A stretch of 64,000 nt of DNA, the filler included, from an uncultured Methanosarcinales archaeon (lineage in GTDB: Archaea > Nanobdellota > Nanobdellia > Woesearchaeales > CAZOXR01): NCBI GenBank assembly GCA_964566535.1. It is 6 parts of 6 records of this genome, joined end to end, with 100 filler letters (N's around TTAATTAATTAA, not from the genome) between each part and the next. Parts side by side here need not be neighbours in the genome. Positions count along the whole stretch, not along the records: positions 35,657 to 45,078 come from CAZMIO010000019.1; 5 more parts are not named here. The stretch is one strand, 5' to 3'. Both the position numbers and the translations under genes were made by a program. Within the stretch, counting starts at the first letter, position 1. The number at the start of each line of letters is the position of its first letter. The notes under the pieces were generated by a model. It made no database searches, was not told the origin of the DNA, and worked only from the letters and a program-made list of their open reading frames with translations. Below are positions 27,509 to 49,858 of this stretch, piece after piece.

Positions 27509-27642
27509 AAGACCGCATAACCATAACACTTGACAAGAAATTATTGAATTGGCTAGATGAAAAAGTAGAGGACAAGATATTCGCAAATAGAAGTCATGGT
27601 TTTGAGTATTTAATAGCAAAAGAGATGAAGAATGAGAAATAA
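27505..27642 (+). CDS. Small ribbon-helix-helix (CopG/CdrS-like) protein, 45 aa, not in ORF track
   Basis: MKDRITITLDKKLLNWLDEKVEDKIFANRSHGFEYLIAKEMKNEK. ATGA overlap upstream and overlap with the next gene's start. Confidence 0.8.
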   Translation: MKDRITITLDKKLLNWLDEKVEDKIFANRSHGFEYLIAKEMKNEK

Positions 27643-30600: not shown

Positions 30601-33600
30601 AGGAGCAAGCATCTTATTCAAAGGAGAAGATAATTTCACCATAAGTGAAAATATTTCTATGATTGCAGGAATAATGACAAATGCAACTAACGGATCTGAG
30701 GCCGGTGTTTTAACATTCTCAACAAGAACTTCTGGTGGAGCATTAACTGAACAATTAAGAATAGATGGTTCAGGTAATGTAGGTATTGGAGTAATAGAAC
30801 CTCAAAATGCTTTAGAAGTAGCAGGAACAATAAACGCATCAGAAATAAAAGTAGGAACTCAAAGTGTAATCAGAGAAGATAATGAATCTTGGGTTGTAGA
30901 TATAGGCAGTTTATACAACCAACAAAACTTCACAGCAAACTACGCTTTAGAAGGTTATGACGCAGAAAATTTCACAGTAAACTACGCAGTAAACGGTTTC
31001 GACAACGAAAACTTCTCAGCAAGATACACAGTAGAAGGTTACAGTGATGCAAACACAACTGGTCTAAGACTCTCAATCCTAAACAACATAACTGATGCAA
31101 ACGCCTCAATTAAATCCTATCTAGACTCAAGAGACGCTAACCTAAGAACAGGCATGGAAGGCAACATAACCTCCTTAGAAAACTCAAGCATAGCCAGAAC
31201 AAATAACGAAAACACCTTCGAAGAAAAAACCACCTTTAACGCACCAGTAACATTCAGAAGTAATGTTACATTTACAGATACTCAAAATAACCTAGTAAAT
31301 GAATCTCTAAAACTAACAGATTTAGACGGGGCAACTAAAATATTACTAAACGCATCCATACCAGATATTACAATTGACGGAAATTCAGTAATAACTGACA
31401 CAATCTTACCAAGTTTATACAACCAACAAAACTTCACCGCAAATTACGCTTTAGAAGGATACGACGCAGAAAACTTCACAGATAACTATGCTATAAACGG
31501 TTTCGACAACGAAAACTTCTCATCAAGATACGCAATAGAAGGTTATAGTGATGCAAACACAACTGGTCTAAGACTCTCAATAGTAAACAACATAACAGAT
31601 GCAAATACTTCTTTACTTGGTCACCTTGTCACCTTAGATGCAGCATTAAGGGCGGGACAAGCTGCAAACGATACTTTGGTCAGACTCTCAATAGTAAACA
31701 ACATAACAGATGCAAATACATCACTATTAGGCCACCTTAACACACTAGATGCAGCAATAAGAGCAGGACAAGCTGCAAATGATACTCTGGTCAGACTCTC
31801 AATAGTAAACAACATAACTGATGCTAACACTTCTTTACTTGGTCACTTAAACACATTAGACGCAGCCATCAGAGAAGGTATAACTGGCAACATAACTGAA
31901 TTGGATAACGGAACAATAATCAGAAGCACAAACACTTCTTGGATTATTAACATAAGCAGCATATACACAGCAGAAAACTTCACCTCGGATTACGCAACAA
32001 ACGGTTTCGACAACGAAAACTTCTCATCAAGATACGCAGTAGAAGGTTTCTCCCTAGCAAACAACCTAACAGGAGCAAATGCAAACCTAACAACCCTAAA
32101 CGTCTCTGGACAAGTATTAATCCCTAATGGAAAAGTGGGAATTGGAACCCTAACACCAGCAGCAACATTAGATGTCAAAGGAGATACCTTACTTAATTTA
32201 ACTACAGATTCAAGAACATTCCAAGTAGTCAACGGCTCAGGAACATCAAGATTCATTGTAAACGAATCAAAAGGTTTTGTTGGAATTGGTACAACTTCAC
32301 CATCAGAAAAACTCAGCCTCAATGATGGAAACTTCCTCCAAACACCTGGAAATCCAACTCATGAAGGGAAATTTGATAAGAATGATCATCCAGATACTGA
32401 GCTTGATGGAGCTTATAATGTATATGTCTCCGGGAAGTATGCATATGTTACTGGAAATGGTGATGATGGAGTGGAGATTCTTGATATTTCGGATCCAGCT
32501 AATCCAACACACGTTGGAAAATTTAATGATTCGGATCATGCTAATGCAGAACTTGATGGGGCTTATGGAATATTTGTTTCTGGGAAGTATGCATATGTTG
32601 TTAGCACTACTGATAATGGAATGGAGATTATTGATATTTCAAATCCGGCTAATCCAACACATGTAGGGGCAATTACAGATGATGGTACTACTATACTTGG
32701 TAGTCCTCGTGACATATATGTTTCTGGGAAGTATGCGTATGTTACTAGTTATTCAGAGAATGGAGTAGAGATTCTTGATATTTCGGATCCAGCTAATCCA
32801 ACACATGTAGGGGCAATTACAGATGATGGTACTACTGAGCTTAGTGGAGCAAAAGGAATATATGTTTCTGGGAAGTATGCGTATGTTACTGGTCAAGGCG
32901 ATGATGGAGTGGAGATTCTTGATATTTCGGATCCGGCTAATCCAACACATGTAGGGGCAATTACAGATGACGATACTACTGAACTTGATGGAGCTAATGG
33001 AATATATGTTTCTGGGAAGTATGCATATATTGCTAGTACTATTGACGATGGAGTAGAGATTCTTGATATATCAAATGCAAGTAATCCTACTCATGTGGGA
33101 AAGTTTAATGATACTGATCACACTGATGCTGAGCTTGATGGGGCTGAAAGGATATATGTTTCTGGGAAGTATGCGTATGTCGCCAGTAATACAGATAGTG
33201 GAGTAGAGATTCTTGATATTTCGGATCCAGCTAATCCAACACATGTAGGGGCAATTACAGATGACGATACTACTGAACTTAATGGACCGAGGGGAATCTT
33301 TGTTTCTGGGAAGTATGCGTATGTTACTGGGAACACTGATGACGGACTAGAAATTCTTGACATCTCAGGCATAGACGCACCAGCAGCCTCCATCGGAACC
33401 ATCTCAACCTCAACTCTTACAGTAACTGAAAACGCAGACATAGGAAATAACCTATATGTAGGTGCCGGACTTAATGTCGGTCAAGGTGGAATCCTAAGTG
33501 ATGGAGACATTGCAACAGCTGGAGATTTATCAGCAAAGGGAGATTTCACAATAAACAAAACAGTCTTCTTCGCAAACGCAACTTCAGGAAGAGTAGGAAT

Positions 33601-34120
33601 CGGAACCTCAACTCCTAACGCAAAATTAGTAATAATAGGCGGAGTAAACATAACTGGAGGATTGAATGTAACAGGAGTAGTAAACTTTGATAATTACCCT
33701 AATTGGGATTCAGACTTAAGTGATGATTACAATGGAGCAAACTTCACAACAGACCTAACAGCAAGCGGAGTAAGACTCTCAATAGTAAACAACATAACAG
33801 ATGCAAATACTTCTTTACTAGGTCATTTAAACACATTAGACATAGCCATCAGAGAAGGTATAACTGGCAACATAACCGAACTATACAACGGAACAATCAT
33901 AAGAAACACAAACACCTCTTGGGCAACATCATCTATAGTAGGAGCAAACGCAAACTTCACAGTCTTAAACGTCTCCGGTCAAGCATTATTCTCAAACGGT
34001 AATGTAGGTATAGGAACTCAAACTCCAACAAAAACACTTCACGTAGAAGGAGAAATAAACGTTACTGACACAAATATTGGAATGTTTTTCGAAAATGGAG
34101 TATTTGTAATAGAAGGATAA
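27632..34120 (+). CDS. Large (2162 aa) fibre-like adhesin with GNVGIGT repeats, helical repeats and 7 LVIVD repeats
   Basis: Signal peptide. Several G(N/K/R)VGIGT motifs. SIVNNITDANTSLLGHL repeats. Seven (Y/F)VSGKYAY(V/I)...EI(L/I)DIS units. Very dense NxS/T sequons. Confidence 0.85.
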   Translation: MRNKVWISLIIVILLASFVYAVPREINIIGKLTDSSGTVVQGNFNFSFRIYDSFTGGNKLYESTFNLTTDSLGVYDGILRNVTLNFSDQYYLGVAVNKDAEMIPRLNLTTSPYSFRSNISESLNPDNKYRIKVINITGNTTIGTDGSDTLTVTTGDFNLSSGNINMSGDLGLGSSITFGLGELIDNLVNGFLRITGSLNITNDLTVVGNVGIGTSTPNAKLVVIGGVNITGGLNVTGVVNFDNYANWDSDTSDDYNAENFTTDYAVGGYDAENFTVNYATNGFDNENFSTRYAVEGYSDSNTTNLRASIVNNITDANTSLLGHLNALDAALRVGQAANDTLIRTSIVNNITDANTSLLGHLDTQDIGIREGITGNITELYNGTIIRDTNSSWVLRSLDGASINLTALNVTGQGLFKSSIQSFVEDSSNASIVNVLTLEHGASNRGMPGLGASILFKGEDNFTISENISMIAGIMTNATNGSEAGVLTFSTRTSGGALTEQLRIDGSGNVGIGVIEPQNALEVAGTINASEIKVGTQSVIREDNESWVVDIGSLYNQQNFTANYALEGYDAENFTVNYAVNGFDNENFSARYTVEGYSDANTTGLRLSILNNITDANASIKSYLDSRDANLRTGMEGNITSLENSSIARTNNENTFEEKTTFNAPVTFRSNVTFTDTQNNLVNESLKLTDLDGATKILLNASIPDITIDGNSVITDTILPSLYNQQNFTANYALEGYDAENFTDNYAINGFDNENFSSRYAIEGYSDANTTGLRLSIVNNITDANTSLLGHLVTLDAALRAGQAANDTLVRLSIVNNITDANTSLLGHLNTLDAAIRAGQAANDTLVRLSIVNNITDANTSLLGHLNALDAALRVGQAANDTLIRTSIVNNITDANTSLLGHLDTQDIGIREGITGNITELYNGTIIRDTNSSWVLRSLDGASINLTALNVTGQGLFKSSIQSFVEDSSNASIVNVLTLEHGASNRGMPGLGASILFKGEDNFTISENISMIAGIMTNATNGSEAGVLTFSTRTSGGALTEQLRIDGSGNVGIGVIEPQNALEVAGTINASEIKVGTQSVIREDNESWVVDIGSLYNQQNFTANYALEGYDAENFTVNYAVNGFDNENFSARYTVEGYSDANTTGLRLSILNNITDANASIKSYLDSRDANLRTGMEGNITSLENSSIARTNNENTFEEKTTFNAPVTFRSNVTFTDTQNNLVNESLKLTDLDGATKILLNASIPDITIDGNSVITDTILPSLYNQQNFTANYALEGYDAENFTDNYAINGFDNENFSSRYAIEGYSDANTTGLRLSIVNNITDANTSLLGHLVTLDAALRAGQAANDTLVRLSIVNNITDANTSLLGHLNTLDAAIRAGQAANDTLVRLSIVNNITDANTSLLGHLNTLDAAIREGITGNITELDNGTIIRSTNTSWIINISSIYTAENFTSDYATNGFDNENFSSRYAVEGFSLANNLTGANANLTTLNVSGQVLIPNGKVGIGTLTPAATLDVKGDTLLNLTTDSRTFQVVNGSGTSRFIVNESKGFVGIGTTSPSEKLSLNDGNFLQTPGNPTHEGKFDKNDHPDTELDGAYNVYVSGKYAYVTGNGDDGVEILDISDPANPTHVGKFNDSDHANAELDGAYGIFVSGKYAYVVSTTDNGMEIIDISNPANPTHVGAITDDGTTILGSPRDIYVSGKYAYVTSYSENGVEILDISDPANPTHVGAITDDGTTELSGAKGIYVSGKYAYVTGQGDDGVEILDISDPANPTHVGAITDDDTTELDGANGIYVSGKYAYIASTIDDGVEILDISNASNPTHVGKFNDTDHTDAELDGAERIYVSGKYAYVASNTDSGVEILDISDPANPTHVGAITDDDTTELNGPRGIFVSGKYAYVTGNTDDGLEILDISGIDAPAASIGTISTSTLTVTENADIGNNLYVGAGLNVGQGGILSDGDIATAGDLSAKGDFTINKTVFFANATSGRVGIGTSTPNAKLVIIGGVNITGGLNVTGVVNFDNYPNWDSDLSDDYNGANFTTDLTASGVRLSIVNNITDANTSLLGHLNTLDIAIREGITGNITELYNGTIIRNTNTSWATSSIVGANANFTVLNVSGQALFSNGNVGIGTQTPTKTLHVEGEINVTDTNIGMFFENGVFVIEG
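28553..31818 (+). repeat. In-frame tandem duplication, period 1623 bp (541 aa)
   Basis: 28553-30195 matches 30176-31818. The translations are identical, and the nucleotides were identical wherever compared. Confidence 0.9.
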
Positions 34121-35656: not shown

Positions 35657-35712
35657 TCCCCCTAATAGTTTTTTTAGAAACCCCCGTTTTTTACAAGTAA
35701 GAATTTTATTGA

Positions 35713-35891
35713 ATATAACGTTGGGATTTTGCGAAGTTTTTTCCCTCGAGAATTTAACCCTCGATTTTTCAGGCATCCCTGAAAAATCAGAGTGGGAAAA
35801 TTCTCAGAGATGGAAAAAATTTGGGAAAAATCGGGAAATCGCTTGGCGATTTAGCGAAGCGACCGATTTTTCCGTAAAATCCCTGTTAAAT
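35713..35891. repeat. attC-like recombination site 1 (branched hairpin)
   Basis: ATATAAC-GTT-GGGATTTTGCG ... CGTAAAATCCC-T-GTTAAAT outer stem with AAC/GTT cores, plus two internal hairpin arms. Confidence 0.7.
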
Positions 35892-36105
35892 TCTTTTTCC
35901 ATACAAAGTATGGAAAAATTTCGTCCTAAAAGTTCGAAAACCCGCCGTGCAGCCAGTTGTTGCAGTAGTTTTTGGTTATAAATTAGTTAATAAATTTCTG
36001 CGTTAGCAGAGTATATCTCTATAGAAATCTGGGGCTAGTAAATTTAATATTCCTGTATTAGTAGTTTGTGAACTTAGTTTTTTATTTTTTTATTGTAATC
36101 AATAG

Positions 36106-36144
36106 GCGGGGCGGGATTTAGTGGTAGGACAAATCCCGCCCCGC
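36106..36144. repeat. Strong GC-rich hairpin downstream of the PIN toxin gene
   Basis: GCGGGGCGGGATTT / AAATCCCGCCCCGC 14-bp perfect stem. Possibly a terminator. Confidence 0.7.
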
Positions 36145-36253
36145 ACTATATTTTGAAAATTTTGCGAATGCAAAATTTTCGGAATGAAAACATAAAATTG
36201 TGTATATTGCTAAAAGTATTACCGTTTTAAAATTGACGTTTTGATTTTCAATG

Positions 36254-36664
36254 TTAAAATTTCATTACTTCTTCTGTAGAATAAACTTTTACAACATTTA
36301 GTTTTTCTTTAAGATCTTTATCATTAGACCAAATTGCAGCATTTAATTTTAATGCAAGAGCAACATAGGGAACGTCTTTTATGTCAGGAGATATTTCTTT
36401 GGCTTTGTCAATAAATGGGTCAACTTCTTTTTTTGGAATAATAGTAATCCTTCTTTTAAATAACCCAATCAATTTGTTGAAATCATGGTCAGATCTTTTT
36501 GTTTTTGAAATTAGCAATTCCTTGTATTGTTCAAATTCTTCAAAAATAAATTGCGGTGCATAAAAGCGAAATTTATCTGAAAACAATAAATCAGAAGTAG
36601 AACCTACTTTTATTAAAGCCGCAAATAGAATATTTGAGTCTATCACTAAAATTGTAACATTCAT
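36254..36664 (-). CDS. vapC: PIN-domain (VapC-like) toxin
   Basis: LVIDSNILFAAL, IFEE, PDIKDVPYVALA and IWSNDKDL motifs. Confidence 0.88.
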   Translation of the reverse strand: MNVTILVIDSNILFAALIKVGSTSDLLFSDKFRFYAPQFIFEEFEQYKELLISKTKRSDHDFNKLIGLFKRRITIIPKKEVDPFIDKAKEISPDIKDVPYVALALKLNAAIWSNDKDLKEKLNVVKVYSTEEVMKF

Positions 36665-36885
36665 TTTGAGAAGTATCTCTTGGCAAGTCTTCTATTAAGA
36701 TCTCCACCTAGCTTTAAAGCATCTTCCTCTGTCAAGGTACTTTTTGACTTAAACTTCTTTAAGAATTCTAGATCAGATATTTTTTGATTAAATGCTTGTC
36801 TAGCTACCTCAGACCAATTTATTTCTGGAAATGTATCCATTTTGTGTTTTAATTCTTCTGGAACTGCTAGTGTTAGGGTTACCAT
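36661..36885 (-). CDS. RHH-type antitoxin
   Basis: MVTLTLAVPEELKHKMDTFPEINWSEVAR. GAGGTG RBS. Overlaps the PIN gene start. Confidence 0.8.
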   Translation of the reverse strand: MVTLTLAVPEELKHKMDTFPEINWSEVARQAFNQKISDLEFLKKFKSKSTLTEEDALKLGGDLNRRLAKRYFSK

Positions 36886-37028
36886 TTTTTTAGCACCTCA
36901 CATTTGTTTATGTTCAAATATTTGAAATATGTGTAAATATATAAATTTTTCTATTTTGATTTGTTACTTTTTTATAGTAGTCAAAAAACGGAAGATTTAA
37001 ATATTAGTTCGATTTATTACTCAAAAGG

Positions 37029-38345
37029 GTGGTTAAAATTAATAATGTTCATTCAAAAGTCAGTGAAATACAAACAGCAATAGAGGATAGAAGAAAGGAA
37101 GAACTTGAATCTATTGTTAAATTGCAAGAAGATTACACTAGAATTATGGGGGAGCCAAGTTCTGAAATACAACTAAGAACAGGAGATGTAGATAAAAAAT
37201 ATAATGCCAAATCAGAGAAATTGGGGGCTTATGTTCGTAGATATAATCGTTTAACATCTTTTTCTGATAATGGATTACGTATTTTAAACTCAAATGGTGT
37301 TAATGAAGATAAAGATTTCGGGACATTTGAGGGTACAGTAAATTTTGAAGATGATCCGGTATATTCAAGAACATCTGAAGTTTTGCAGAGAAAAATCAGA
37401 GAAAGAGGTAAAGATTCAGCAGATATAGAAAGCGAATACTGGAGTGTTATATTCCCAGAGGATAGTGACTTGGAAGAAAAGACAACTCAAGCTATTACCC
37501 CTATCCAATTACCTGAATTAACAGAACCAAAAATACTTACATTACGAGAAGAATTAGAAAAGACCACTGATTTGGCATTAAAAGAAAAAGTAGAAACTGC
37601 AGTAGCTTATGTTAATCAACAAGTAGGACCAATTTATGATTTACATTCTTTATCAAGTCAAGAGTTATTTGAATTACAGCAAGGCTTAGAAAGATTCAAT
37701 GAGATGCCTTCTAACCAAAGACTGGAAAGAACATTCGATTTTGTGAATGCATATTTACCCCCAGATGCATGGAATGGATTATCTGCTCAAGAACAGGATT
37801 TAATTCATTATACAAGACTAAGAGACAAAAATTCTGATCCTGGGGAATTTAGGGCTATGACAAGAGATAGAGAAGAAAGACTCGCAACAACTATATTGAA
37901 AGCTTATACTAGAATGGTGGATCGCCATGGTCAATATAGACAAAGTCCTATACCTACTTCGCAATTTCCAGATAAAAATGGGAATGCAGGACAGGTTTTA
38001 TTTGTGGAGCAATGGTTAACGGAAAAGATAGACCCGTATAGAGAAGATGTTTATTCTCAAGTGACAGATCAAAATTTAAGAGGTGTATTAGATTTTCATT
38101 CTGGTGTAGAAGCAAGATTAACCCCAGAAGAAATGCAGGGAGTAAATGTAGGCTACCAGGTCAATAAAATGAGAAACTTGTCAACATTTTATGAGGGAAG
38201 ACATTCATTAAGTACTAAACAAAGACAATTTGCATTTGATCTAATGACACAGTACATAGCTAGTATTTCAAACCTACCAGATGTGTTAATGAATAAATTG
38301 GCAGAACCTGAAAAACCTAAAATGATTACTTATGGCACAAAATGA
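37029..38345 (+). CDS. Hypothetical protein (438 aa, helical)
   Basis: Long ORF; no family recognised. Confidence 0.75.
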   Translation: MVKINNVHSKVSEIQTAIEDRRKEELESIVKLQEDYTRIMGEPSSEIQLRTGDVDKKYNAKSEKLGAYVRRYNRLTSFSDNGLRILNSNGVNEDKDFGTFEGTVNFEDDPVYSRTSEVLQRKIRERGKDSADIESEYWSVIFPEDSDLEEKTTQAITPIQLPELTEPKILTLREELEKTTDLALKEKVETAVAYVNQQVGPIYDLHSLSSQELFELQQGLERFNEMPSNQRLERTFDFVNAYLPPDAWNGLSAQEQDLIHYTRLRDKNSDPGEFRAMTRDREERLATTILKAYTRMVDRHGQYRQSPIPTSQFPDKNGNAGQVLFVEQWLTEKIDPYREDVYSQVTDQNLRGVLDFHSGVEARLTPEEMQGVNVGYQVNKMRNLSTFYEGRHSLSTKQRQFAFDLMTQYIASISNLPDVLMNKLAEPEKPKMITYGTK

Positions 38346-39825
38346 GTATAGGGAGTTACTTAGCCTATTTTTTGAAAGAGGAAAGAAAACTTTTCTAGAA
38401 TCCCAAAGTCTTGAAGAATTATTGCAACAAACTATATCTTATGATAGGGGATTGGAGTTAGTCCAACCATTATATCCAACTTCTGACAAGACACAAATTT
38501 TAAGGAAATTAACAGCTGCAGACTTGCTTTATTTATCCTTAGCTGATAGGATTCCAAATCGTGCTGATCCTTTAGTAGAGGAGTACAATGTTACATCAAA
38601 AGGAATAAGATTTAAAACAAAACAACGTCAAATTTCTGCAAAATTTGTTCCACCAGTTGATTATTATGTTGATAGCCAATTTGAAATAATATCCAGAACA
38701 GAAAGGCAGGTATTAGAAGAAGGTGCATCTTTGAATAGATATTTTAGATATAACTTTCCTTCAGATGAATCTGGTGAAATGAAATTTTATGATCTTTCTT
38801 TAGACGAAGTTACCACATTACCAAATGGATTATTTCCAAAAATTATTGAGAATCCTGAAGAAATTAATAATATTTCAGAAAAATCGGGCTTAATGTTTAC
38901 AGCTAGTGGTATACTTATTTTAGATATTAATACAAATTCAGTGCATTTAGAACCCTATACTCCTAATTTACAGCAACAAATCGATAATGTCATTCGTGAG
39001 CATCGGAAATATAATAAAACTACACCATCTTTGACGGTTCGTGACGAACTAAAAGTATTTAGAGATAATTTCATGATGCATTTATACAATTTTGTTAATA
39101 ATACTGTCCGAACATTTTCAACGCAGAACTTAAGTGACATCGAACAAAGAGCTTTTAATTTAGAAAAAGGATATGGTGTAAAAATAGACTATCGGGGTAT
39201 GGATTTTGATCATCAAAGATTTCACCCTCCAATAAATAATGGAGACTTAAATGTTATAGAAAATATTTTGGAAATTATACAAGATACTTTTTTGAAATAT
39301 TTTTCAGAAATTCAAAAGATAAATGGACCTCGTCGATACGATGGTTCTAAAGAAAGTGCTCTACAATTAATGGATGAGAGAGTATCAAGACTTTATTCTA
39401 GAGCAGTTACTTCTTCTCAAGGAAAAGTTACTCCCCTAGACAATCGTTTATTATCACATAGTCCATCATATCAACCCTCAGCTTCCAAAGGCATTATAAT
39501 CCTTGATGAAGTTGGAGTAGAGGCTCTAAAGGAAGATTTTAATAGATACCTGCCTTACCACCTTAGCTCTATTGGTAGAAACCTATTTTTAGGATTACCA
39601 GAAAATTTAAGTAGCGAATATTTACAGTTGGCAAAACCTGAAATTGAAAGACAATTAGATCTTATACAGGTCATGGGTTATGACAGAAAAAGAAATGAGT
39701 CATCTTTAACTATGGTAGATTTTATGCGTTTTATATCTGAGTATCATATTGCACATATAGAGAGGAGACCTTATTCTTTAGATGAAGGTAGAGTTGCATT
39801 TTATGATAAATTATTTGGGAACTAG
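38332..39825 (+). CDS. Hypothetical protein (497 aa)
   Basis: Long ORF overlapping the previous gene by 14 nt. Confidence 0.75.
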   Translation: MAQNEYRELLSLFFERGKKTFLESQSLEELLQQTISYDRGLELVQPLYPTSDKTQILRKLTAADLLYLSLADRIPNRADPLVEEYNVTSKGIRFKTKQRQISAKFVPPVDYYVDSQFEIISRTERQVLEEGASLNRYFRYNFPSDESGEMKFYDLSLDEVTTLPNGLFPKIIENPEEINNISEKSGLMFTASGILILDINTNSVHLEPYTPNLQQQIDNVIREHRKYNKTTPSLTVRDELKVFRDNFMMHLYNFVNNTVRTFSTQNLSDIEQRAFNLEKGYGVKIDYRGMDFDHQRFHPPINNGDLNVIENILEIIQDTFLKYFSEIQKINGPRRYDGSKESALQLMDERVSRLYSRAVTSSQGKVTPLDNRLLSHSPSYQPSASKGIIILDEVGVEALKEDFNRYLPYHLSSIGRNLFLGLPENLSSEYLQLAKPEIERQLDLIQVMGYDRKRNESSLTMVDFMRFISEYHIAHIERRPYSLDEGRVAFYDKLFGN

Positions 39826-40121
39826 ATTTAATTTGATTTAGTGACTATGTAATTTCACATACTAATTTAATTCTACTATCGAAGTGATTTTAGTTTTATT
39901 GTAATGTTACATAATTTATTAAAAAATCTTTAAACAATTTTATCCCCTGATTCCATTTTATTATTTATAACCAAAAATTTGGGTGAAACAAAGTGTAACT
40001 GTTAAACTTTTGTTATTGGAAATGAAAAGCATTTACTATTCTCTTCTGTCTATGAAGTTTAACGAATGTAACAACTAAGGATGCACGGTCTACTATCACT
40101 ATAGGCGGGTTTTCGAATTGA

Positions 40122-40301
40122 ATTTAACATCTAGGATTAAGCGAAGTCCCGTAGCCCTCGAAAATTTCTCCTCGTTTGATTTTGAGGCAATCCACTAAAT
40201 CAAACAGAGCTGAGAAATTTTCAGAGTGGCGGAGGGATTTGGGTGAGTAACGCAGGGGCTTTGATGCCCCGAGTAACGCAACCGCTTAATCCTTGTTATG
40301 C
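40122..40301. repeat. attC-like recombination site 2 (branched hairpin)
   Basis: ATTTAAC-ATCT-AGGATTAAGCG ... CGCTTAATCCT-T-GTTATGC. Same length and arm layout as site 1. Confidence 0.75.
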
Positions 40302-40828
40302 GTAGTGAGGCTTTGATGCCGAACGGAGTTTTTTATTTGCCAAAAGGAAGCAGTACCCGATAGGGTTGTGCTGACTGTAATTTTTAGCAAATCTACAGTT
40401 TTTTCTAGATTAATTTTGGAATTAAAATCGTTAAGGAAAAAATTTGGGCTGGAATAGAGCTTGACTCGTATGTAACCGTTTAACGCTTGTTAGGCAAAGT
40501 GCAAAGCATTTTGACGGTTTCTTTTTTAGTGGCGTTAAGCGATGATTTGCGTTAAGAAAATTTTGGTTTACCTATAGTAGTTGAAAATCTATTACTATCA
40601 ATTACTGCTTTAGCAGACTATATTTTTACAAAGAGGCACTATGTTATACATTTCTTGCAAAGCAAGGCTATATTTCCGTAGGAATCGGGAGGCATTTTAG
40701 TTTTTATTTTATTGTTGTTAATTTTATGGAATTGGGGGCTACATTTCAGCTATTCTTTAAGGATTCGGGGGTAAAAGAATAGCAATTTTAAAGGAATATT
40801 TATAAATACAAATTGATAACCTTTATTC

Positions 40829-41527
40829 ATGAAATGGATATTATACATATTAATTTTAGTATTAATGTGTTTTAGTGTTTTGGCAAATGATTTTTTTATA
40901 ATTGATGAAACCAAAATAGATTCTTTTGCAGGTTTAGAAGAATCATCAGATTCTATATTTGTTGGTTCATCCATTAGATACAATCTTTCTTTTCACTATA
41001 ATGGCTCAAAATCTGATTTGGATATGCAATCGTTTCAAGTACAAATAATCAATCCAAATGGAGATATTCTTGAAGAGGAGAATTTTTCTTTGAATATTCA
41101 ACCCAACCTAAATTATAGTGTGGATAGTTCTATTGATGAGAATCTATATAAACTAATATATGCTGATGTACCTGGTGTTTATAAATTATTATTGACTTCA
41201 AACTCATATCCTTTTTATGAATCAAAAAAGACAGGATTCAGACAAGATAAATCGATACCATTCTTTTTTGAAGTTAGAAGGTTAGAGGAAAAAAGATTAA
41301 TAGACAGTTCAGAATCAATAGCAAAAGAAAGTAGTGAGATAAATAAAAAATTATTGAAGCTTACGAATAATATTTATGTAGCTACATTAGTTATGTTGGT
41401 GGTTGCACTGTTAACACTTTATACATCTCCAAAAGGAAGAGATTTATTAGTACAAATAATTAAAGTTGGATTTTATGTTATTGGTGCAATCTTAATATTA
41501 TTTATTTTGTATCAGTTGTTTTCTTGA
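40829..41527 (+). CDS. Secreted/membrane protein with two C-terminal TM helices
   Basis: Signal peptide and hydrophobic C-terminal segments. Confidence 0.75.
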   Translation: MKWILYILILVLMCFSVLANDFFIIDETKIDSFAGLEESSDSIFVGSSIRYNLSFHYNGSKSDLDMQSFQVQIINPNGDILEEENFSLNIQPNLNYSVDSSIDENLYKLIYADVPGVYKLLLTSNSYPFYESKKTGFRQDKSIPFFFEVRRLEEKRLIDSSESIAKESSEINKKLLKLTNNIYVATLVMLVVALLTLYTSPKGRDLLVQIIKVGFYVIGAILILFILYQLFS

Positions 41528-41607
41528 GTGAATAATATAAACGTGCCAAAAAAGAGAAATATTTATATATTATGCCTTATGATATATCATAGGAAGGGGG
41601 TTGTAAA

Positions 41608-41835
41608 TTGGTAAATACTAAACAAAAAATTATAGAATTATTGAAAAAAGCAGATTGGCCTTCTACAACAGAAGATATTGCGGTAGAGATTAAAGTATCT
41701 TGGAATACTGCCCAAGTTCATCTTTTAAAAATGCTTCATGAAGGTATTGTCAAATACAAGAAAGTTGGGAGACAAAATCAGTTTTGGCTTACTGAGAATT
41801 ATGAAAAATATTTTAAAAAGGGTGATAAAAAATGA
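41608..41835 (+). CDS. Winged helix-turn-helix regulator
   Basis: STTEDIAVEIKVSWNTAQVHLLKMLHEGIVKYKKVGRQNQFWL. TTG start after an AGGGGG RBS. Confidence 0.8.
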   Translation: MVNTKQKIIELLKKADWPSTTEDIAVEIKVSWNTAQVHLLKMLHEGIVKYKKVGRQNQFWLTENYEKYFKKGDKK

Positions 41836-42572
41836 AATGTCCTAAATGCGGAGCAAGTATAACAAAAGATGATGCTTTTTGTCCAGAATGTGGTAGTAAA
41901 GCTGATTTTGAAAAAATTGAGAAAAAAAGTAAAAAGCATGAAGAAAAAGAACCCCATCATAAAGCTACTTCAAATAAATGGGTTAAACCAGTTTCAATCA
42001 TTGGAATAATTTTAATTGTGGGTGTAATATTCATTTTTGCAATACCTCTTCCCTATTATCCAACTGAAGTATATAGTATTAGTGAACCTTATACTGCTTC
42101 TGAAACTTATTATGAAGAAGATTCCTATCAAGATACAGAATGCGAATGGAAGTATCCTTCCTACAACAAGGATCAAGAAATGGAATGGGTTGGTGAAAGG
42201 ATTAAAGTTATATGCACCATAACCAATTTTGAAGATGAAGCTGTAAGTTTTAGTTACACTTTATGGACTGGAGAAAATTCTGGAGATACTGATGATGACT
42301 ATGGTCCTAGAAGTGTTACTGTGGGTCCAGGACAAACCGTTACTAAGGATAGTCTTTTAGATAACGGTCCAGGCGGTCATTATGGGTGTAGCGTTTCTGC
42401 AAGCCAAATAAAAGAGTGTCATCTAACAACTAAGTTTAAATCCGTTCCTAAACAAAGAACTGTAACTAAATATAAAAATGTAGATAAGGAAAGAAAAGTT
42501 ACAAGATATGCACCGTTATTCCAACGGTGGACAGGTCAAGTTAATTGGTATTTCAGAGAGGGTGAAGCATGA
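41832..42572 (+). CDS. Zinc-ribbon membrane protein
   Basis: CPKCG...FCPECG, TM helix, extracellular T/E/Y-rich region. Confidence 0.8.
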   Translation: MKCPKCGASITKDDAFCPECGSKADFEKIEKKSKKHEEKEPHHKATSNKWVKPVSIIGIILIVGVIFIFAIPLPYYPTEVYSISEPYTASETYYEEDSYQDTECEWKYPSYNKDQEMEWVGERIKVICTITNFEDEAVSFSYTLWTGENSGDTDDDYGPRSVTVGPGQTVTKDSLLDNGPGGHYGCSVSASQIKECHLTTKFKSVPKQRTVTKYKNVDKERKVTRYAPLFQRWTGQVNWYFREGEA

Positions 42573-43261
42573 AATATTGTAATAAATGTGGAGCAAAAAT
42601 AAAAGGGAATACTAAATTTTGTAACAAGTGCGGGAATAAAATCGAGAAAAAACAACCTATAAAAGAAGATAAAATAGAACACAAGCCACATCACACCCAT
42701 CATAAGAAAAGTTATTCTACGTACATCTGGATAGCAGTTTTTTTAATTTTATTTGCAGGGATAGTTTTTCCAACAAAAAATGTAGAATATCAGGTAGAAG
42801 TCCCATATGAAGATGTAGAATATTATACAGAAAAAGAGCCATATGAAACACAAGAAGCTTACGAAAAACAAGTCCCATATGAGGCTACTGAAACTTATGT
42901 GGATACTGTTCCTGTAGAGAGAGAAGTGCCTTATACAGACTATGAAACAGAATCTTGGTATGATTATACTACTGATTGTGATTATTCTTCATATTGTTCT
43001 TGTACGGGTACAAGTTGGTGGACTGGTAAGTGTAATAAATGTTATTGTTCCAAAACTAATCCCGTTACAAAGTATAAAAAGGAAATTATTGATGAAGAAG
43101 TAGAAAAAGAAAGAGCTATTACAAAATATAAAACTGTAATTGATTATAAAACAGTTACTAAATATAAAGATGTTCAAAAATCTAGAGAAGTTATGAAGAC
43201 AAAAATGGAAACAAGAATAAAGAAAGTAAATTGGCTTTTTGGTTTTGAAGTTCCTTGGTAA
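42569..43261 (+). CDS. Zinc-ribbon membrane protein with long beta-hairpin stalk-like region
   Basis: CNKCG...FCNKCG, TM, repeated VPY/EPY outbound and TKYK inbound segments around a Cys-rich tip. Confidence 0.8.
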   Translation: MKYCNKCGAKIKGNTKFCNKCGNKIEKKQPIKEDKIEHKPHHTHHKKSYSTYIWIAVFLILFAGIVFPTKNVEYQVEVPYEDVEYYTEKEPYETQEAYEKQVPYEATETYVDTVPVEREVPYTDYETESWYDYTTDCDYSSYCSCTGTSWWTGKCNKCYCSKTNPVTKYKKEIIDEEVEKERAITKYKTVIDYKTVTKYKDVQKSREVMKTKMETRIKKVNWLFGFEVPW

Positions 43262-43266
43262 TTAAT

Positions 43267-44280
43267 ATGAAATACTGCAATAAATGTGGGGCAAAATTAA
43301 AAGAAAACACAAAATTTTGCAATAAATGTGGAAATACCATAAAATTAGAAAAAGAAACCAGTAAAAATTGGATATTACCTGTATTTCTCGTTACTCTAAT
43401 CATAATATCTGTAAGTGGTTATTTAGTTTATTATAATTCTATTTCAAAGCAGGGAAAAACTGATGAATTGAATAAGATGGATCAATTAAAACAAAAACAA
43501 TCTCAATTAGATGAAGAATTTAATAGACAATTACAAGAAAAAGAATCTTCATTAATCAAGCAAAAACAAAGCACAGAATCTGGAGACCAAGATAATGATG
43601 GGTTAACCTATTCAGAAGAGATGAGTATGAATACTGACCCCTACAATCCAGATAGTGATGCAGATGGGATTATGGATGGTGAAGATCCTCATCCTGCGGG
43701 CGGAGGAATTATTTACAAAAGAACTGTACATTGGCAACATAATGGAAGAGATTACACTACACAATTTGGTATTCCTGAAGACTGGTATTTATATTATAAA
43801 AAACAACCAAGAGGGTATTGTTGTGATGGATGGGATAAATTTGCTACCCCTAATGATATTACAATAAAAAACATAGCTAAAGATATTGTTGATGTATCCA
43901 TAAGCACTGGCGATAATTGTAAAATATGTATCGCTATTGATTTTGTTCAATCAATTATTTATGAAAAAGATATTGATTACAACAAAAACAGGGAGTATCC
44001 TAAGTTTGCTATTGAGACAATTATTGATGAGAAAGGCGACTGTGAAGATACCTCATTTTTAATGGCTTCAATTTTGGAAGCGTTAGATATAGACACGATA
44101 CTTTTCGATTTGCCAGGCCACATGGCAGTAGGCGTTTATTGTAATAGTTGTTCTGGAACTTATTATACATATAAGGGGAGAGATTATTATTTCCTTGAAA
44201 CTACTGGTGCTCCTGGAAGTTGGGAAATGGGGAGAACAAGTTATGACTTAGATGAACTTGAGCATATAATTGAGGTGTAA
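43267..44280 (+). CDS. Zinc-ribbon membrane protein with transglutaminase-like cysteine protease domain
   Basis: CNKCG x2, TM, coiled coil, DQDNDGL/DSDADGI Ca-binding motifs. YPKFAIET, GDCED, PGHMAVG and FLETT motifs. Confidence 0.82.
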   Translation: MKYCNKCGAKLKENTKFCNKCGNTIKLEKETSKNWILPVFLVTLIIISVSGYLVYYNSISKQGKTDELNKMDQLKQKQSQLDEEFNRQLQEKESSLIKQKQSTESGDQDNDGLTYSEEMSMNTDPYNPDSDADGIMDGEDPHPAGGGIIYKRTVHWQHNGRDYTTQFGIPEDWYLYYKKQPRGYCCDGWDKFATPNDITIKNIAKDIVDVSISTGDNCKICIAIDFVQSIIYEKDIDYNKNREYPKFAIETIIDEKGDCEDTSFLMASILEALDIDTILFDLPGHMAVGVYCNSCSGTYYTYKGRDYYFLETTGAPGSWEMGRTSYDLDELEHIIEV

Positions 44281-44281
44281 T

Positions 44282-44764
44282 ATGATAGATTTAAGTATGT
44301 GGGAGATATTAAGTTTATTTTTATCTTTAGGTTTCCCATTATTTATTTCCATATATGAAGAAACGAGATATGTTAAAAGAAAGAATCTACTAGCTTATGG
44401 GGTTGCACTAATAATTTTTACCCTCATTTTTTTTAGTTTACCGTTGATGGAAAATCATGAATATTTGAGGTTGATTTCAATAATCTTCTTGGTATTGGGT
44501 GGTTTAATGATTTATTTTTGGAAGTATCCAAATAAAAATCCTATTCCAATGAACAATAGTAAAAGTTTGATCTATAGTTGGAAAAATTTTGGTGCTTTTG
44601 AATTTGCTTTTGTTTCCGTCGTGTTTTATAGCGAAATACCTAAGATTATATATTTTTTTGGAATTAAAGTGTTAGATTTAGGAATAAGTCTATTAATTAT
44701 TTTTTGGGTAACCTCTTTTGGGATTCGAATTTATAGGAAATGGGAAAGAGATGATAGACACTAA
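44282..44764 (+). CDS. Multi-pass membrane protein
   Basis: About five hydrophobic segments. ATG 1 nt after the upstream stop. Confidence 0.7.
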   Translation: MIDLSMWEILSLFLSLGFPLFISIYEETRYVKRKNLLAYGVALIIFTLIFFSLPLMENHEYLRLISIIFLVLGGLMIYFWKYPNKNPIPMNNSKSLIYSWKNFGAFEFAFVSVVFYSEIPKIIYFFGIKVLDLGISLLIIFWVTSFGIRIYRKWERDDRH

Positions 44765-45021
44765 GCCCCCGATTTTATATTTTAGTTTTATTTAGTTAAT
44801 TATATTTAGCCCCCGATTCCGTTTTTTTCGTTTGTGCCTCTTTGTCTAAATAAATAGATTTTCAACTGCGAAGTTTCTCGACAATAACAGGAAATTATTG
44901 AGGATAATTTTATGCAAATTAATTCTTAATTAATTTATAGTTCTGAAATTCTTTGATGGATTTTAGAATTATCGTCGAGAAATCAGCTGAACGTAGTTCT
45001 GCGAGGCAAATAAAAAATTAC

Positions 45022-45062
45022 GCATAACAACTATTAAGCGAATATTTATCTCGCTTAATAGT
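45022..45062. repeat. Minimal/degenerate att-like site 3
   Basis: GCATAAC then a 12-bp perfect stem ACTATTAAGCGA/TCGCTTAATAGT sharing TTAAGCG/CGCTTAA with site 2. No right-hand GTT before the contig end. Confidence 0.55.
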
Positions 45063-45078
45063 ATCATCTAGTGCAAAA

Positions 45079-45178: not shown

Positions 45179-48100
45179 TATCCTGTCTAATTCTTCTTGC
45201 TCCTTTTGTTGTTCTAGTTCTATTTGTTTTTGTCTTTCAAGTTCTTTTTCTTTTTCTTCTTGTGCTACTCTTTCCTTGTCTTTCCTTTGTCTTTCTTCTA
45301 TTCTTTGTTGTCTTTCAAGTTCTTTTTGTGCTTTTGCTTCTCCTATCTGTTTTTGTTCTTCTTCTAGTTTCTTTTGTGCCTCTAATTCTATTCTCTCTTG
45401 TTCTTTTCTTTTTTCATCTAATTCCTTTTGTCTTTCTAGTTGTATTTTTCTTTCTACTTCTTCCTTGGCTTTTCTTTCTTTTTCTAGCTCTAACTGCTTC
45501 TTTTCTTCTTTTGTTTTTATTATGCCTAAAGAATGGAATGTGTCATAGACTTTTTGCTTTGTTGCTTTTCTTAAGGTGACTAATTCCTTTTCCCTTCTTT
45601 CTTTCTTAGCTATCTTTTCTTTCTCAATCCTTCTTTTGTGAATCTTGATATCTTCGTAGCTTTGTTCTATCTTTTCGTAAAGAAGTTCTTCAATATCTTC
45701 AGGAGATCCTACGTATACCTTCCTTAATTTATCATATTGTCTTTCTGCTTTGCTTACGTTCTTCTCTTTTAATGATTCTGAGATGTCTTCTAGAATTTGG
45801 AGTGATTTTTGGAGGAGATCTTCTTTTCTTTTTTGGATAAGTTCTTTTTGTTTTTTCTTTTCTTCTCTTTTTTGTCTTCTCTTTTCAAGGGCATTTTGTT
45901 TTTCCTGCTCTACTCTTGTTTGTTCTTTATTTTTTTGCTCTGTTAATTCAATCTCTTTTTGTTTTTCTAGTTCTCTTTGTTTTTGCCTTTCTTCTTGTAA
46001 CTTTTGCTCTTCTTTTAGTTTCTTTTGTGCTTCTAATTCTCCTTTTTTAGCTTCTTCTTGTTCTTCTCTTTCTAATCTTTCTTGCTCTTTTCTTTGTTCC
46101 TCTGTTGCTTCCTGCCTTTCTTTATCTTTGATTGCTTTTTGCCTTTCTAATTCTTTTTGCCTTTCTTTTTCTTCTAGTTCTTTTTGCCTTTCTAGTATTT
46201 TTTGTTGATTCTCTCTTAGTCTCTTCTTTCTCCCTAGCTCAATTTGTTGGATTTCTTCTTCTGTCTTAGTTAAACCTATGCTATGGAATATGTCAAATAT
46301 TTTTTCTTGTCTTATTTTTTTTAGTTTCTTTCTTTTTCCCTCTTTTTCCCTAATCTTGTCTAGTTTATCCTGAGATATGTTTTCTTTCTTTGATTTAATT
46401 TCGTTATAGGTGGAATCAACTTTTTTGTATAATAAGTTTCTAACTTCTTCAGCTGAATCTAAGTATATTTTCTTTAATTTGTCATATCTGTGTTCTGCCT
46501 TGGAGATATTTTCTTTAGTTAGGGCAATGTGTACATCTTCAATGAGAACGTCACACCTTCTTAATAGGAGTCTAATATTTTTTCTCTTATTTTCCTTTTC
46601 TTTTTCCTTTAGTAGTTTTTCTTTTTCTTTTTCTACTATTAATCTTCCGTCCTGTATCTTTTTCTCTCTTGCTTTTCTTTCTTTTTCCTCTTTTTCTCTT
46701 AATCGTTTCTTTTCTGATTCTATTTGTCTTCTTGCTTCTTTCCTTCTTTTCTCTTCAAGTTCTTTTTCTCTTTCTTTTTGTTGTCTTATCTTATCTTTTT
46801 CTTTTTCTTGTTGTTTTCTTTCTTGTTCTATTCTTCTTGTTCGTTCTTCTTGTGCTCTTATCCTTTCTCTTTCTCTTTCTTCTATCCTTCTTTGTTGTTC
46901 TAATTCTTTTTGTCTCTTTTCTTCTATCTTTTTTTCTAAATTATTTGTCAGTTTTTCTTTATTTTTTTGGAATATTTTCTTCGGACTGAATAAATTTGAG
47001 AAGATATCTTTTCCTGTATCTTTCTTTTCCTGCTTTTTCTTGTTCTTATCTATTTTCTTTTTTAGTTTTCCTTCGCTGAGTGCTTTTTCTGTCTGTTTGA
47101 TTAATTTGTAAGAATTATTTACTTTTTTATAGACTGAACTTCTAATATCTTCTGGCAGGGAGACATAGACTCTTCTTAGTTTGTCATATTTCTTTTCTGC
47201 TTTGTAGACCTTGTTTTTGGATATAGAGTCCCTAATATCTTCAAATAAGAAGTTGCACTTTCTTAGAACTTTTCTTGCCTTTCTATTCTTTGCTCCCCTT
47301 ATTTTATCCCTTCTTATCCTTTCTTTTAGTCTTTGTTGGTTTAATCTTTCTTCTTCTTTTCTTTGTTCTTTTAACTCTTTTTCTCTTGTTACTTTTCTTT
47401 CTAATTTTCTTTTTTCTAGTATCCTTTCTTTGATTTCTTGTTCTCTTTGTCTTTTTTTCTCGTTAATTTCTCTTAATTTTATTATTTCTTCTTGTTTCTT
47501 TGCTTCTTCTTTGTTATTTCTTGCTAAGTCTCTTATCTTTATCTTTTCCTCTAATCTTTTGAATCTAGAATTTCTTGATTCTTCGAACTTTTTTAAGAGA
47601 TTATCTTCTTTTTCCTTAACTTTGCCTTTTATTGTTTCGACTAAATTGAAATACCTCTTTTTTGTTTGCCCTTGTTCTGATTGTGACTCTTCTATCTTTT
47701 CGGTTGGTTGCGGTATAGGTTCTGTTTGTTGAGTAAACTCATCTTTTGGTGCGAATATTTTAGTCTTAATGTCCTTTGCTTTTTGCTCGAAGTCTTCTTG
47801 CTCTTCGTCTTCTAACATCCCTTCTTTTTCTTGTTCTAATCTATCTTTTAGTTTTTGTATCGATGTTTTTTCACTTTCATGTAGCTTTTCTTCTTCTCCT
47901 TGGATTTCCTGGTTTAGTCTTTCCTTGTCTAATGCCTCTTTTAATTTAGCAACCCTTTCTTTTTGATCTTGCTTTGTCTTTTCATCCTGGGTCCTGTATA
48001 ATTCTTTTATTCTTTCTTTTTCAAGTTTTTTTCTTAGGTTGTGTTGTTTGACTAGCCATTTTCTTTTTTCTTCTCTTATCTTTACTCTTTGTTTTTGATT

Positions 48101-49858
48101 GGAAATGTTGTTTTTTGATTCGTTTAACTCCTCAATCAATCTTTTGAAGAAGGGGACTTTCTTTCTCTTTTTGTCAAGAATTCTTAATCTTTTGAGCTCT
48201 TTTTCTCTTAATTTACGTTCTTCATCTTCTCTTGCGTATGTTAGGTGGTCTTCTTGTAGGTTTTCTACTAATTTAGTTTGGTCATTCTTGAGATTATCTT
48301 TTAATTGTTGAATATGTTGTTTGCGAGACCCTTTGAGTTTATCCTTTTCTAAGATATCTCTTAATTCTGCCTGTTTAGATAGTTCTTTTTCTTTTAGTCT
48401 TCTTTCTTTGTCTTTTTGTTTGTCTTCTTTGTATTTGGTTAAATTATCTTTTAGTTTAGTGAATGGTTGTTTTAATTTGTTGATAAAAGTAGTTCTCTTT
48501 TTTTCTTGAAGTCCTTGTTTGTGGAGTTTTAGTTCTTTTTCATGCTGTCTGCTTAATTCTTTTAATTTTAGTTCTTCTAATCTTTGTTTTTGTTGTTCTA
48601 ATTTTATCTGTTCTTGCTGTTTCTTTTCTTCCTCTCTTTCCCTCTCTTCTTCTGATTCTTCATTGTTCAAGTCTTTTTCCTTCTTTAACTTCCATCTTTG
48701 GAATAGTTCTGTTAATCTTGGTACAGATCCTTTTACTCTGGCTGCTCCTTCTATGACTTTTGTTTGGGCTTCTGCTAGCTCCCTAGGTATAGCTATTACT
48801 TGCCTAGGTAGTTGAGTTTGTTGAATTGTTACTTCTGGTGGGATTCCACTTATCTTTCTGTAGATTAGGGAGCCTAGTGCGAAATAGCTATATGCTCCTA
48901 TTGAGAATATGATTAGGACTAGGATTAAGGATAGAGACCAGCACATGACATCGTTTCTACAGAATGCGATGAGGTCAAAGTATTTTTCCTCTGTTACTGG
49001 GTCAATTACTTCGAATAGGTAGGAGGCTGTTCCTATTGAACCCCCATATGTTGCTTTTGCAATGAATACATAACTTCCTAAGTTTAGATTCTTTGGGATG
49101 TGGATTGTTTTGAAGAAGGATGCCTGGGTTTTTACTACTACTGTTTCTATCTCTGTTATTATCGTGTTGCCCTCTAGGTCTTTTACGAAATACTCCATAT
49201 TTAGGTTAACTGGATCAATTCCCTGCAGATTGAATAGTCTTATTTCAACAACGATATCCTGGCTTCTTTTTACTGTTCTTTCTTTTGCTAATGTGTTTAG
49301 GTTCATGTCAAATAGTACATTGCTGCTTTCTATCTCAACTACTACAGGTATGTTCTTTGTGTAGTCTTCAGAAGTTGCTACTAGTGACCCTACATAGACT
49401 CCCGGTGTTTGTTCGATTTGCCTTATTGGGTCAAAGCTTGAAATATTTAAGTTTACAATCTTTGTCTGACCGGGTTTTGTTAGGAAGTTTGATTCTGACG
49501 TCCTTACGATATCCGCAAGATTCTTTGTGAATAGGGTGATTGATTGGTCTTCGTTTCCTGTATTTGTTACTCTTATTGGACGGCTCACGAATTCTTTTTC
49601 TTTGATTAATACTTTTAGTAGAAGTTGGTCTATATCAAATAGAGGAGTTTGTTCTGTTATAGTTTGTTGTTGGATAGTATGGGACCTTGATTGGATTATG
49701 AGGTAGCCGCCAAATACTATTGCTAAGATTATGAAAGCGCTGATTAGGAATGAGAAGAACTTTTTGAATCCTGTATGTGGGTGTTTGGTTTGGATTCTAG
49801 TTCTAGGCCTAGCGATTCTTTTTCTTGCTTTTTCTGGCTTTGATTTTCTTTTAACCAA
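45179..49858 (-). CDS. Large two-TM membrane protein with >1100-aa K/E/R/Q-rich coiled coil, 3'-truncated
   Basis: TTG start after AGGTGA. TM, Ig-like domains, TM, then a charged coiled coil with three AExxYDKLxxxY modules. Confidence 0.85.

Follow-up and report, generated by a model that had tools for sequence, protein, structure and literature searches.

The window analysed here is a 64,000-nucleotide stretch of six contigs joined by N-linkers, all from one uncultured archaeal genome (G000), and one of these contigs, C19 (positions 35657-45078), consists entirely of a gene-cassette array. We read this array as an integron-like gene-cassette platform of DPANN archaea and Patescibacteria, served by XerA-type tyrosine recombinases without the IntI insertion, and give this reading a probability of about 0.82. 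Small symbiotic archaea and some small bacteria seem to accumulate and exchange whole sets of genes, in many cases defence operons, at one constant place in the chromosome, where an enzyme of the chromosome-resolution type and branched DNA hairpins appear to replace the integron integrase and its sites. Judged from sequence, the cassette system is mobile and widespread and resembles an integron in its working, but falls outside the definition of one. The sequences support a fixed attI-like site beside a divergent recombinase gene, with cassettes stacked there; a crossover between TAA and C on the long-spacer side; and a covarying hairpin that closes each cassette on its far side, with neighbours that differ between populations. 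Full-text literature searches, which did not extend to most subscription papers, returned no description of such a cassette system.

Organization of the array

Read on the minus strand, C19 comprises an attI-like site, cassette B (six genes), cassette A (four genes) and the start of a third cassette. The attI-like fixed insertion site (type B, 45028-45072, minus strand) has a dif-like inner arm, a 6-nt spacer, a short upstream inverted repeat and an 11-nt loop. Cassette B (40128-45027, minus, 4900 bp) is first in the array, and its genes point to attI. It ends in an attC-like forked hairpin (40128-40295) with 9-nt and 6-nt spacers and a 3-nt bulge, whose plus strand is the predicted recombining strand. 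Cassette A (35719-40127, minus, 4409 bp) is second, as judged by its matching arms, and ends in a hairpin of the same kind (35719-35885, plus) with 8-nt and 6-nt spacers and a 2-nt bulge. The third cassette (35657-35718, minus) is cut off by the contig end; its start arm has the family form TTA-N5-AAT.

Each C19 hairpin site consists of two inverted Xer-type halves, TAA-8/9 nt-TTW and WAA-6 nt-TTA. A first-pass annotation of the window had described three AAC...GTT-bounded hairpins. The two large ones are homologous to each other and fold beyond chance (z -7.66 and -6.74, with 0 of 200 shuffles as good in each case), but the third has only the 11-nt loop. The spacer asymmetry noted there is genuine and amounts to 8 or 9 nt from TAA to TTW on one side and 6 nt on the other. 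Likewise, the offset complementarity between neighbouring sites (35885 with 40120, and 40293 with 45019) is borne out. The start arm of cassette B (45017-45027) is complementary to its own end arm (40296-40303), including 5/5 variable bases, and that of cassette A (40117-40127) to the end arm at 35886-35893. Directly beside each start arm lies an outer-stem block. In cassette B (arm and block 45005-45027, minus), 45005-45017 pairs with 40329-40341, and three more nested pairing blocks reach 44804 and 40744; in cassette A (40104-40127, minus), 40104-40117 pairs with 35933-35946. Neither cassette contains an internal site, according to a script scan allowing heads of up to 260 nt and a scan with the covariance model R1 described below.

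The cassette limits differ from those of the annotation, which had placed them at 35885 and 40295; the crossover falls after TAA on the long-spacer side, at 35718/35719, 40127/40128 and 45027/45028. The array polarity is also reversed, each hairpin belonging to the cassette on its right, and the circle junction to be sought is not 40295-35886; the correct junctions would be 40127-35719 and 45027-40128.

Hairpin sites of the family

A family of 166 distinct hairpins shares this anatomy, with a long spacer of 8 nt in 161 and 9 nt in 5, and a short spacer of 6 nt. The bulge is TC in 156/161 and the spacer is otherwise paired, while the inner arm, free of extra bases, pairs at 95-100% over seven positions. 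Two hairpins make up the forked head, and the window's sites are long versions of this form. The long-spacer-first strand, predicted to recombine, is the more stably folded one in 153/166, and the hairpins display a G-T wobble bias. Offset pairing is better than own pairing in 36 of 46 cases, with 4 ties and 6 worse. All hairpins of one array have a single polarity relative to attI. Covariation was assessed in 70 aligned sites (the first 70 of the 94 left after removal of near-duplicates): two-sided changes occur in 14 of 21 pairs, a level reached by none of 500 shuffles.

The hairpin motif was found in at least 132 stretches of the genome_contigs collection, mostly under DPANN and Patescibacteria titles, and had no match in viral contigs; Rfam gave no match on three array loci. 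Model R1, built from sites of up to 122 nt, matches at least 61/151 Woesearchaeales and at least 13/151 Patescibacteria-phylum genomes (seed included); it has no match in five control bacteria or in a class 1 integron region. The genomes flagged as unpublished (G209, G337, G205 and G132) contribute one row in alignment A2, three in the first tree and one of the 61/151, and affect no conclusion.

Cassettes

Start arm and end arm agree in 75 of the 102 successive intervals, against a shuffled mean of 9.2 and maximum of 19. In 42/66 cassettes the start arm is immediately followed by a block of at least 9 nt that pairs with another located 33-118 nt inside the cassette's own end, compared with 0.9% for shuffled partners, and the predicted own circle folds better than a foreign junction in 65/66. 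Nested terminal inverted repeats occur in 87% of 52 cassettes (11% when shuffled). Together with the position of block B between two 6-nt-spacer half sites in inverted orientation, and with a locus (L409) in which B-type ends (76-79%) surround a different gene, these repeats would suit MITE-like (miniature inverted-repeat transposable element) or pdif-like double-stranded modules, or a shufflon-type inversion, with the hairpins as by-products. Such modules would hardly account for the single polarity of all hairpins of an array relative to attI, nor for contigs that branch at the long-spacer core; the bulge, the wobble bias and the compensatory changes indicate a folded single strand, and we consider this explanation very improbable.

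Cassettes have a median size of 906 bp; 14 are of at least 3 kb and the largest is 9.9 kb, so that A and B are large yet not unique. The first-pass annotation was right to call its cargo blocks large and multi-gene (4 and 6 main open reading frames, ORFs), but this is a family-wide trait and not peculiar to G000. Among 113 cargo proteins scanned (of 121 located; Pfam E<1e-6), restriction-modification components number 16 and ParE toxins 2, and 47 proteins have no match; no replication or virion gene was found at that threshold. Single cassettes of 5-10 kb carry whole type I or type II restriction-modification operons and GmrSD (L406-L407, equal to G401 C1:836-866 kb; L377; L390). On the complete chromosome G401, a recombinase and attI accompany eight sites spread along about 30 kb, and nothing of IntI size exceeds the Pfam cut-off. 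Genome G028 has one recombinase and three arrays, two of them with no recombinase gene beside them.

Some sites lack the hairpin head altogether: such collapsed sites occur on contig C14 of the host genome, at the last junction of its contig C8, and in L409. These headless sites may fix cassettes in place.

The attI site and its neighbouring recombinases

The site at the right end of C19 (site 3) had been taken for a third attC. It differs from the other two in that the 6-nt spacer is its left one and GTT is missing from its right side. Its 16-mer, conserved on the minus strand and recurring with the upstream repeat in many DPANN loci, matched 107 stretches, many by chance; in 14 of the 80 examined, a recombinase starts 56-102 bp upstream. 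Among 22 matches with the upstream repeat (one a probable chance match, and one locus counted twice) there are 16 different outer arms, nearly all TTA-N5-AAT. The closest relative, L303, is 96% identical over 55 bp and has a recombinase start but a different first cassette; in L275, likewise, the window's flank is shared and the first cassette differs. Because of the conserved 16-mer and repeat, the upstream recombinases, and these flanks with other first cassettes, site 3 is an attI from which the array runs to the left; an attC that is inverted or degenerate, also considered, was dropped on the same grounds. In the window, L275 and L303, the 11-nt loop of the attI repeat (45042-45052) has the opposite orientation to that in L140, L167 and most other loci. 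In L285 (246-288), two attI core copies face each other round a short loop beside a recombinase gene.

A recombinase gene accompanies 14 of 79 hairpin-motif loci, divergent from attI wherever attI is recognisable. C19 itself contains no integrase, as first noted. The search of the genome for an IntI- or Xer-type enzyme gave two PF00589 matches. One is the XerA-like P0001 (273 aa, C10:40636-41642), divergent from a second attI of another type, so that G000 has two attI types; the other (C15:8863-9528) is a tyrosine recombinase of 221 aa with the catalytic domain only. C10 stops precisely at the GTTA core of a site with a 6-nt spacer, P0001 pointing away, and G050 C12 ends likewise. A 12-nt identity suggested joining the C10 end to site 3 of C19, but this join was rejected, since the identity reflects the two attI types; contig-end overlaps gave no placement of C19. 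A 6-nt-spacer motif also lies at the end of contig C3, but no link to the cassette system could be made. Two more array ends in the host genome are C8:46815-48761, where two cassettes precede a contig end within a hairpin, and C14:28640-28728.

P0001 passes the archaeal XerA model NF040815 (228.4; cut-off 220) and fails the integron-integrase model TIGR02249 (164; cut-off 265). Compared with IntI4 it lacks about 42 residues, its predicted structure has no helix at the position of the IntI insertion, and its best structural matches are XerA 5hxy and 4a8e. Array-adjoining recombinases in general are XerA-like proteins of about 270 aa, and the GKGxK-to-HxxR distance is 55-64 aa in 41/41 measurable archaeal and candidate phyla radiation (CPR) rows, against 99-100 in IntI. 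P0001 as a single query found no relative in genome_contigs; an alignment search succeeded. Within the order, P0001 itself matched 264 of 401 genomes. The best 30 loci, examined for adjoining sites, include one group with a palindromic dif beside the gene and another with an asymmetric CG-nn-TAA-6 nt-TTA site, mostly 135-240 bp upstream.

In a 49-row tree, 20 cassette-linked recombinases of DPANN and Patescibacteria form one group (group B; 94/90), and 11 others including P0001 (group A) fall with dif-linked XerA (100/98), with IntI apart. A single clade for all 31 is weakly rejected (p-AU 0.023, for a grouping chosen after the first tree). Since it includes two IntI rows and is distantly rooted, the tree does not indicate whether group A or group B stands closest to IntI. 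In every group A locus seen, CCAGTG/CACTGG repeats separate the gene from the site. In L266 (a Clostridium plasmid), a XerA-like recombinase without the IntI insertion stands beside an IS91-family transposase, which belongs to another single-strand system.

The affinity of group A with dif-linked XerA bears on the question of whether a dedicated system exists at all. CTX-like elements might instead hijack the housekeeping XerA at dif, the 'attI' being merely dif. The 6-nt spacer and 11-nt arms are those of dif, the commonest cassette arm equals the Woesearchaeales dif arm at 8/11 bases, G000, G028 and G157 each have one full-length XerA-type recombinase only, and the CTX attP is described as a folded site of the 12-nt/5-7-nt kind (PMC4246890). 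Yet palindromic dif sites adjoin a separate, slowly evolving XerA clade, with flanks mostly free of hairpins. The attI sites, by contrast, lack symmetry, carry upstream repeats that are conserved, and adjoin other paralogues, of which 20 make up a DPANN and CPR group of their own; moreover, no replication or virion gene is found among the scanned cargo proteins at the Pfam threshold given above, and the hairpin motif has no match in viral contigs. Hijacking is therefore an unlikely account of the array as a whole, but the housekeeping XerA may act in trans in some genomes, and the dedicated platform remains the preferred reading.

Comparison with known systems

Like integrons, these arrays have a recombinase gene adjoining and divergent from a fixed attI, stacked cassettes, a one-strand crossover at an AAC triplet (G/TT), offset complementarity and a recombining strand that folds more stably; on C19 the gene would lie past the contig end. 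They also share cargo types (toxin-antitoxin, GNAT, methyltransferase and NUDIX genes) and the occurrence of recombinase-less arrays. A tyrosine-recombinase cassette system with crossover at the AAC/GTT triplet and non-canonical sites, as originally proposed, thus has support at the level of sequence. The identification as integron cassettes does not stand: the recombinase is XerA-like and has no IntI additional domain (I2), and the array is therefore not a member of the integron family as defined. By definition, attC has R and L boxes, an L'' extrahelical base and an unpaired central spacer (PMC5027507). Here, the inner box has no extrahelical base, and spacers of 6 and 8 nt with a fixed 2-nt bulge replace the unpaired central spacer. 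Unlike attC, the sites are strongly conserved in sequence and have a forked head and cassette-specific outer stems. Finally, genes occur in either orientation (74 ORFs away from attI and 70 towards it; 27 and 15 in single-gene cassettes) with no one-way, Pc-type order, and operon cassettes reach 9.9 kb.

Archaeal integrons have been reported, as have clusters of attC sites lacking integron-integrases (CALINs), including Nanoarchaeota genomes with 2-14 attC and no IntI (PMC9668308). Ordinary CALINs with divergent attC and a canonical IntI elsewhere would share the AAC/GTT crossover, the strand bias and the small cargo, and some overlap may exist, since the other 530 attC are absent from the supplement of that study. 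However, the nine archaeal attC printed there are all of canonical geometry, none with the present spacers, and the archaeal IntIs have the extra domain. R1 is silent on the class 1 integron region, attI adjoins recombinases without the insertion, and gene orientation varies as noted. This alternative too is highly improbable. The IntI insertion is noted to be incompletely conserved in an integron-like subgroup of recombinases (PMC8138268).

The XerA-based platform recalls two further systems. CTX attP(+) and other Xer-exploiting elements have inverted dif-like halves, unequal spacers, a fold that mimics double-stranded DNA for an I2-less Xer, and tandem integration (PMC4246890; PMC4792948). 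By sequence and covariation, the array sites too are folded from two inverted Xer-type halves of this sort. The arrays differ from these elements in having no phage or replication genes, in having their own attI and paralogous recombinases in place of a chromosomal dif and XerCD, in their single recombinase, and in neighbours that vary within populations. Archaeal XerA/dif shares the recombinase family, the 11-6-11 site geometry and a site beside the gene (PMC2958812; PMC8371274). No palindromic dif like those of its relatives was found in G000. By contrast with the single near-palindromic site with constant arms of XerA/dif, attI is asymmetric with a variable outer arm, its partner is probably a folded single strand, and the product is a cargo array and not a resolved dimer.

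Signs of mobility

Locus L410, from a public metagenome, is 99.9% identical to the window over the end of A, the hairpin at the end of B and the whole of B. Beyond the core at 45029, however, it has another hairpin site in place of attI. This arrangement fits what would be expected of a newer cassette inserted at attI. Logan contigs from four runs start, end or diverge at the TAAC cores at 35719, 40125, 45025 and 45029. One X3 contig spans 40125-45053, and another (contig 25) departs from the reference after 35719. In X2, contig 17 runs 2.4 kb past the contig end in the third cassette; X2 and X13 contigs depart from the reference at 45029, and X10 joins another start arm at 45025. Cassette B has about twice the depth of A in X2 and X3, by a coarse measure taken from contigs, and cassette A is mostly uncovered in X13, which is weak evidence, as it is contig cover only. 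Further copies of the site, varying neighbours and changes at the cores, the checks proposed for the array by the first-pass annotation, are thus all found.

Several observations weigh against the platform interpretation. No circle junction appeared in the contigs listed from four runs (117 loose ends were not listed) or in the comparison with L410, and loose ends in metagenomes can stem from other organisms sharing the site. The assignment of C19 to the bin is unproven, because the contig is AT-richer (GC 31.4%, against 35.5% in the bin). Neither recombinase of G000 is linked to C19: P0001 adjoins a different attI type, and no type-B recombinase gene was found in the genome. The C19 enzyme would be either a type-B recombinase just past the contig end, missing from the assembly, or P0001 acting in trans. 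Elsewhere, the sole recombinase of G157 belongs to the dif-linked clade and lies 360 kb from the array, and G163 (98% complete) has sites but no recombinase that could be found. Of the 102 consecutive intervals, 27 were not validated. R1 gives the window's long (170-nt) sites only 11-20 bits and misses them genome-wide, so that its genome counts are lower bounds. Lastly, sites were seeded by motif and a pairing filter, which inflates the share of paired cells in the 70 aligned sites (98.8%; 32-47% in slid controls); since the set was chosen with that filter, covariation outweighs the paired percentage as evidence.

Proposed mechanism

A free cassette would be a circle of single-stranded DNA in which the hairpin and both ends fold together into a nearly double-stranded, dif-like site. 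In the folded site, an 11-nt arm would be followed by a 6-nt overlap with a 2-3-nt bulge, the inner arm, the forked head, and the outer stem with a side branch. The recombinase would exchange one strand pair with the double-stranded attI, and replication would resolve the junction, as for integron attC and CTX phage attP. Exchange of the folded long-spacer-first strand with attI fits the hairpin position, the points at which contigs branch, and the 2-nt CA homology that attI and the long spacer have in common. The newest cassette would insert beside attI, displacing older ones outwards. On single-stranded DNA, the cassette-specific outer stems would let the ends of an integrated cassette pair, setting up excision, and such stem-guided excision may be why cassettes of 5-10 kb can move. 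For the single-strand chemistry, replicative resolution and stem-guided excision, we infer by analogy with integron and CTX biology.

Integron recombination is regarded as depending on the IntI insertion and on the extrahelical bases of attC, and detection tools rely on both. A cassette platform with neither would escape those tools. Among the genomes sampled, about 40% of Woesearchaeales and about 9% of Patescibacteria carry it. It would explain where these reduced genomes store restriction-modification, toxin-antitoxin and surface genes that can be exchanged, and also the breaks of assemblies at such places. A small recombinase appears to stack multi-kilobase operons at a single site. Xer and Xer-exploiting integrative mobile elements (IMEX) have been proposed as integron ancestors, and the platform lets this suggested descent of integrons from Xer/dif and CTX-like elements be tested directly (PMC4792948). 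We give even odds to the broader proposition that this is a second, independent integron class, assembled from components of Xer/dif and recruited on two or more occasions (groups A and B); that it is the main gene-capture and defence-island platform of DPANN and Patescibacteria, shared between domains; that it represents a living I2-less ancestor stage of Xer plus folded DNA; and that long terminal stems guide the excision of operons.

Genes of the two cassettes and other features

Cassette B encodes, on the plus strand, a 232-aa protein (40829-41527) predicted from its sequence to be exported with a C-terminal membrane anchor, with no confident family, and a 75-aa putative winged-helix helix-turn-helix (HTH) regulator (41608-41835; HTH matches weak and below cut-off). 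They are followed by two paralogous zinc-ribbon proteins of 246 and 230 aa with a single transmembrane segment (41832-43261; PF13240 above cut-off) and by a 341-aa zinc-ribbon, transmembrane and coiled-coil protein (43255-44280; PF13240) with a transglutaminase-like C-terminal domain, whose Cys/His motif was read from the sequence. This last protein has 190 homologues, a few with PF01841 or PF04473. The sixth gene, called as an ORF, encodes a 164-aa protein with several transmembrane segments and no function assigned (44270-44764). Cassette A contains a VapBC-type toxin-antitoxin pair on the minus strand (36254-36885), made up of a 74-aa antitoxin and a 136-aa PIN nuclease (PF10130, E 2.8e-27; NF050799, E 6.7e-7, below cut-off), and two orphan ORFs of 438 and 497 aa on the plus strand (37029-39825), for which Pfam, NCBIfam, PADLOC and Atlas gave nothing usable.

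The host genome, that of a marine member of the Woesearchaeales, measures 1.45 Mb and is 91% complete. In the genome search, its order-level relatives bear Woesearchaeota titles, and several records titled Methanosarcinales (L068, L079, L096 and others) were placed in its order; record titles are therefore a poor guide to host range. Parts of the stretch were found in 20 public runs from 14 studies, mostly marine. Elsewhere in the window there is a 4556-aa ORF (1497-15167), and a 2162-aa repeat protein (27632-34120) with exact internal duplications 1623 bp apart, which may be genuine or may stem from assembly. Another long ORF (45179-49858), charged, coiled-coil and broken by a contig end, is related to the ORF at 61200-62650.

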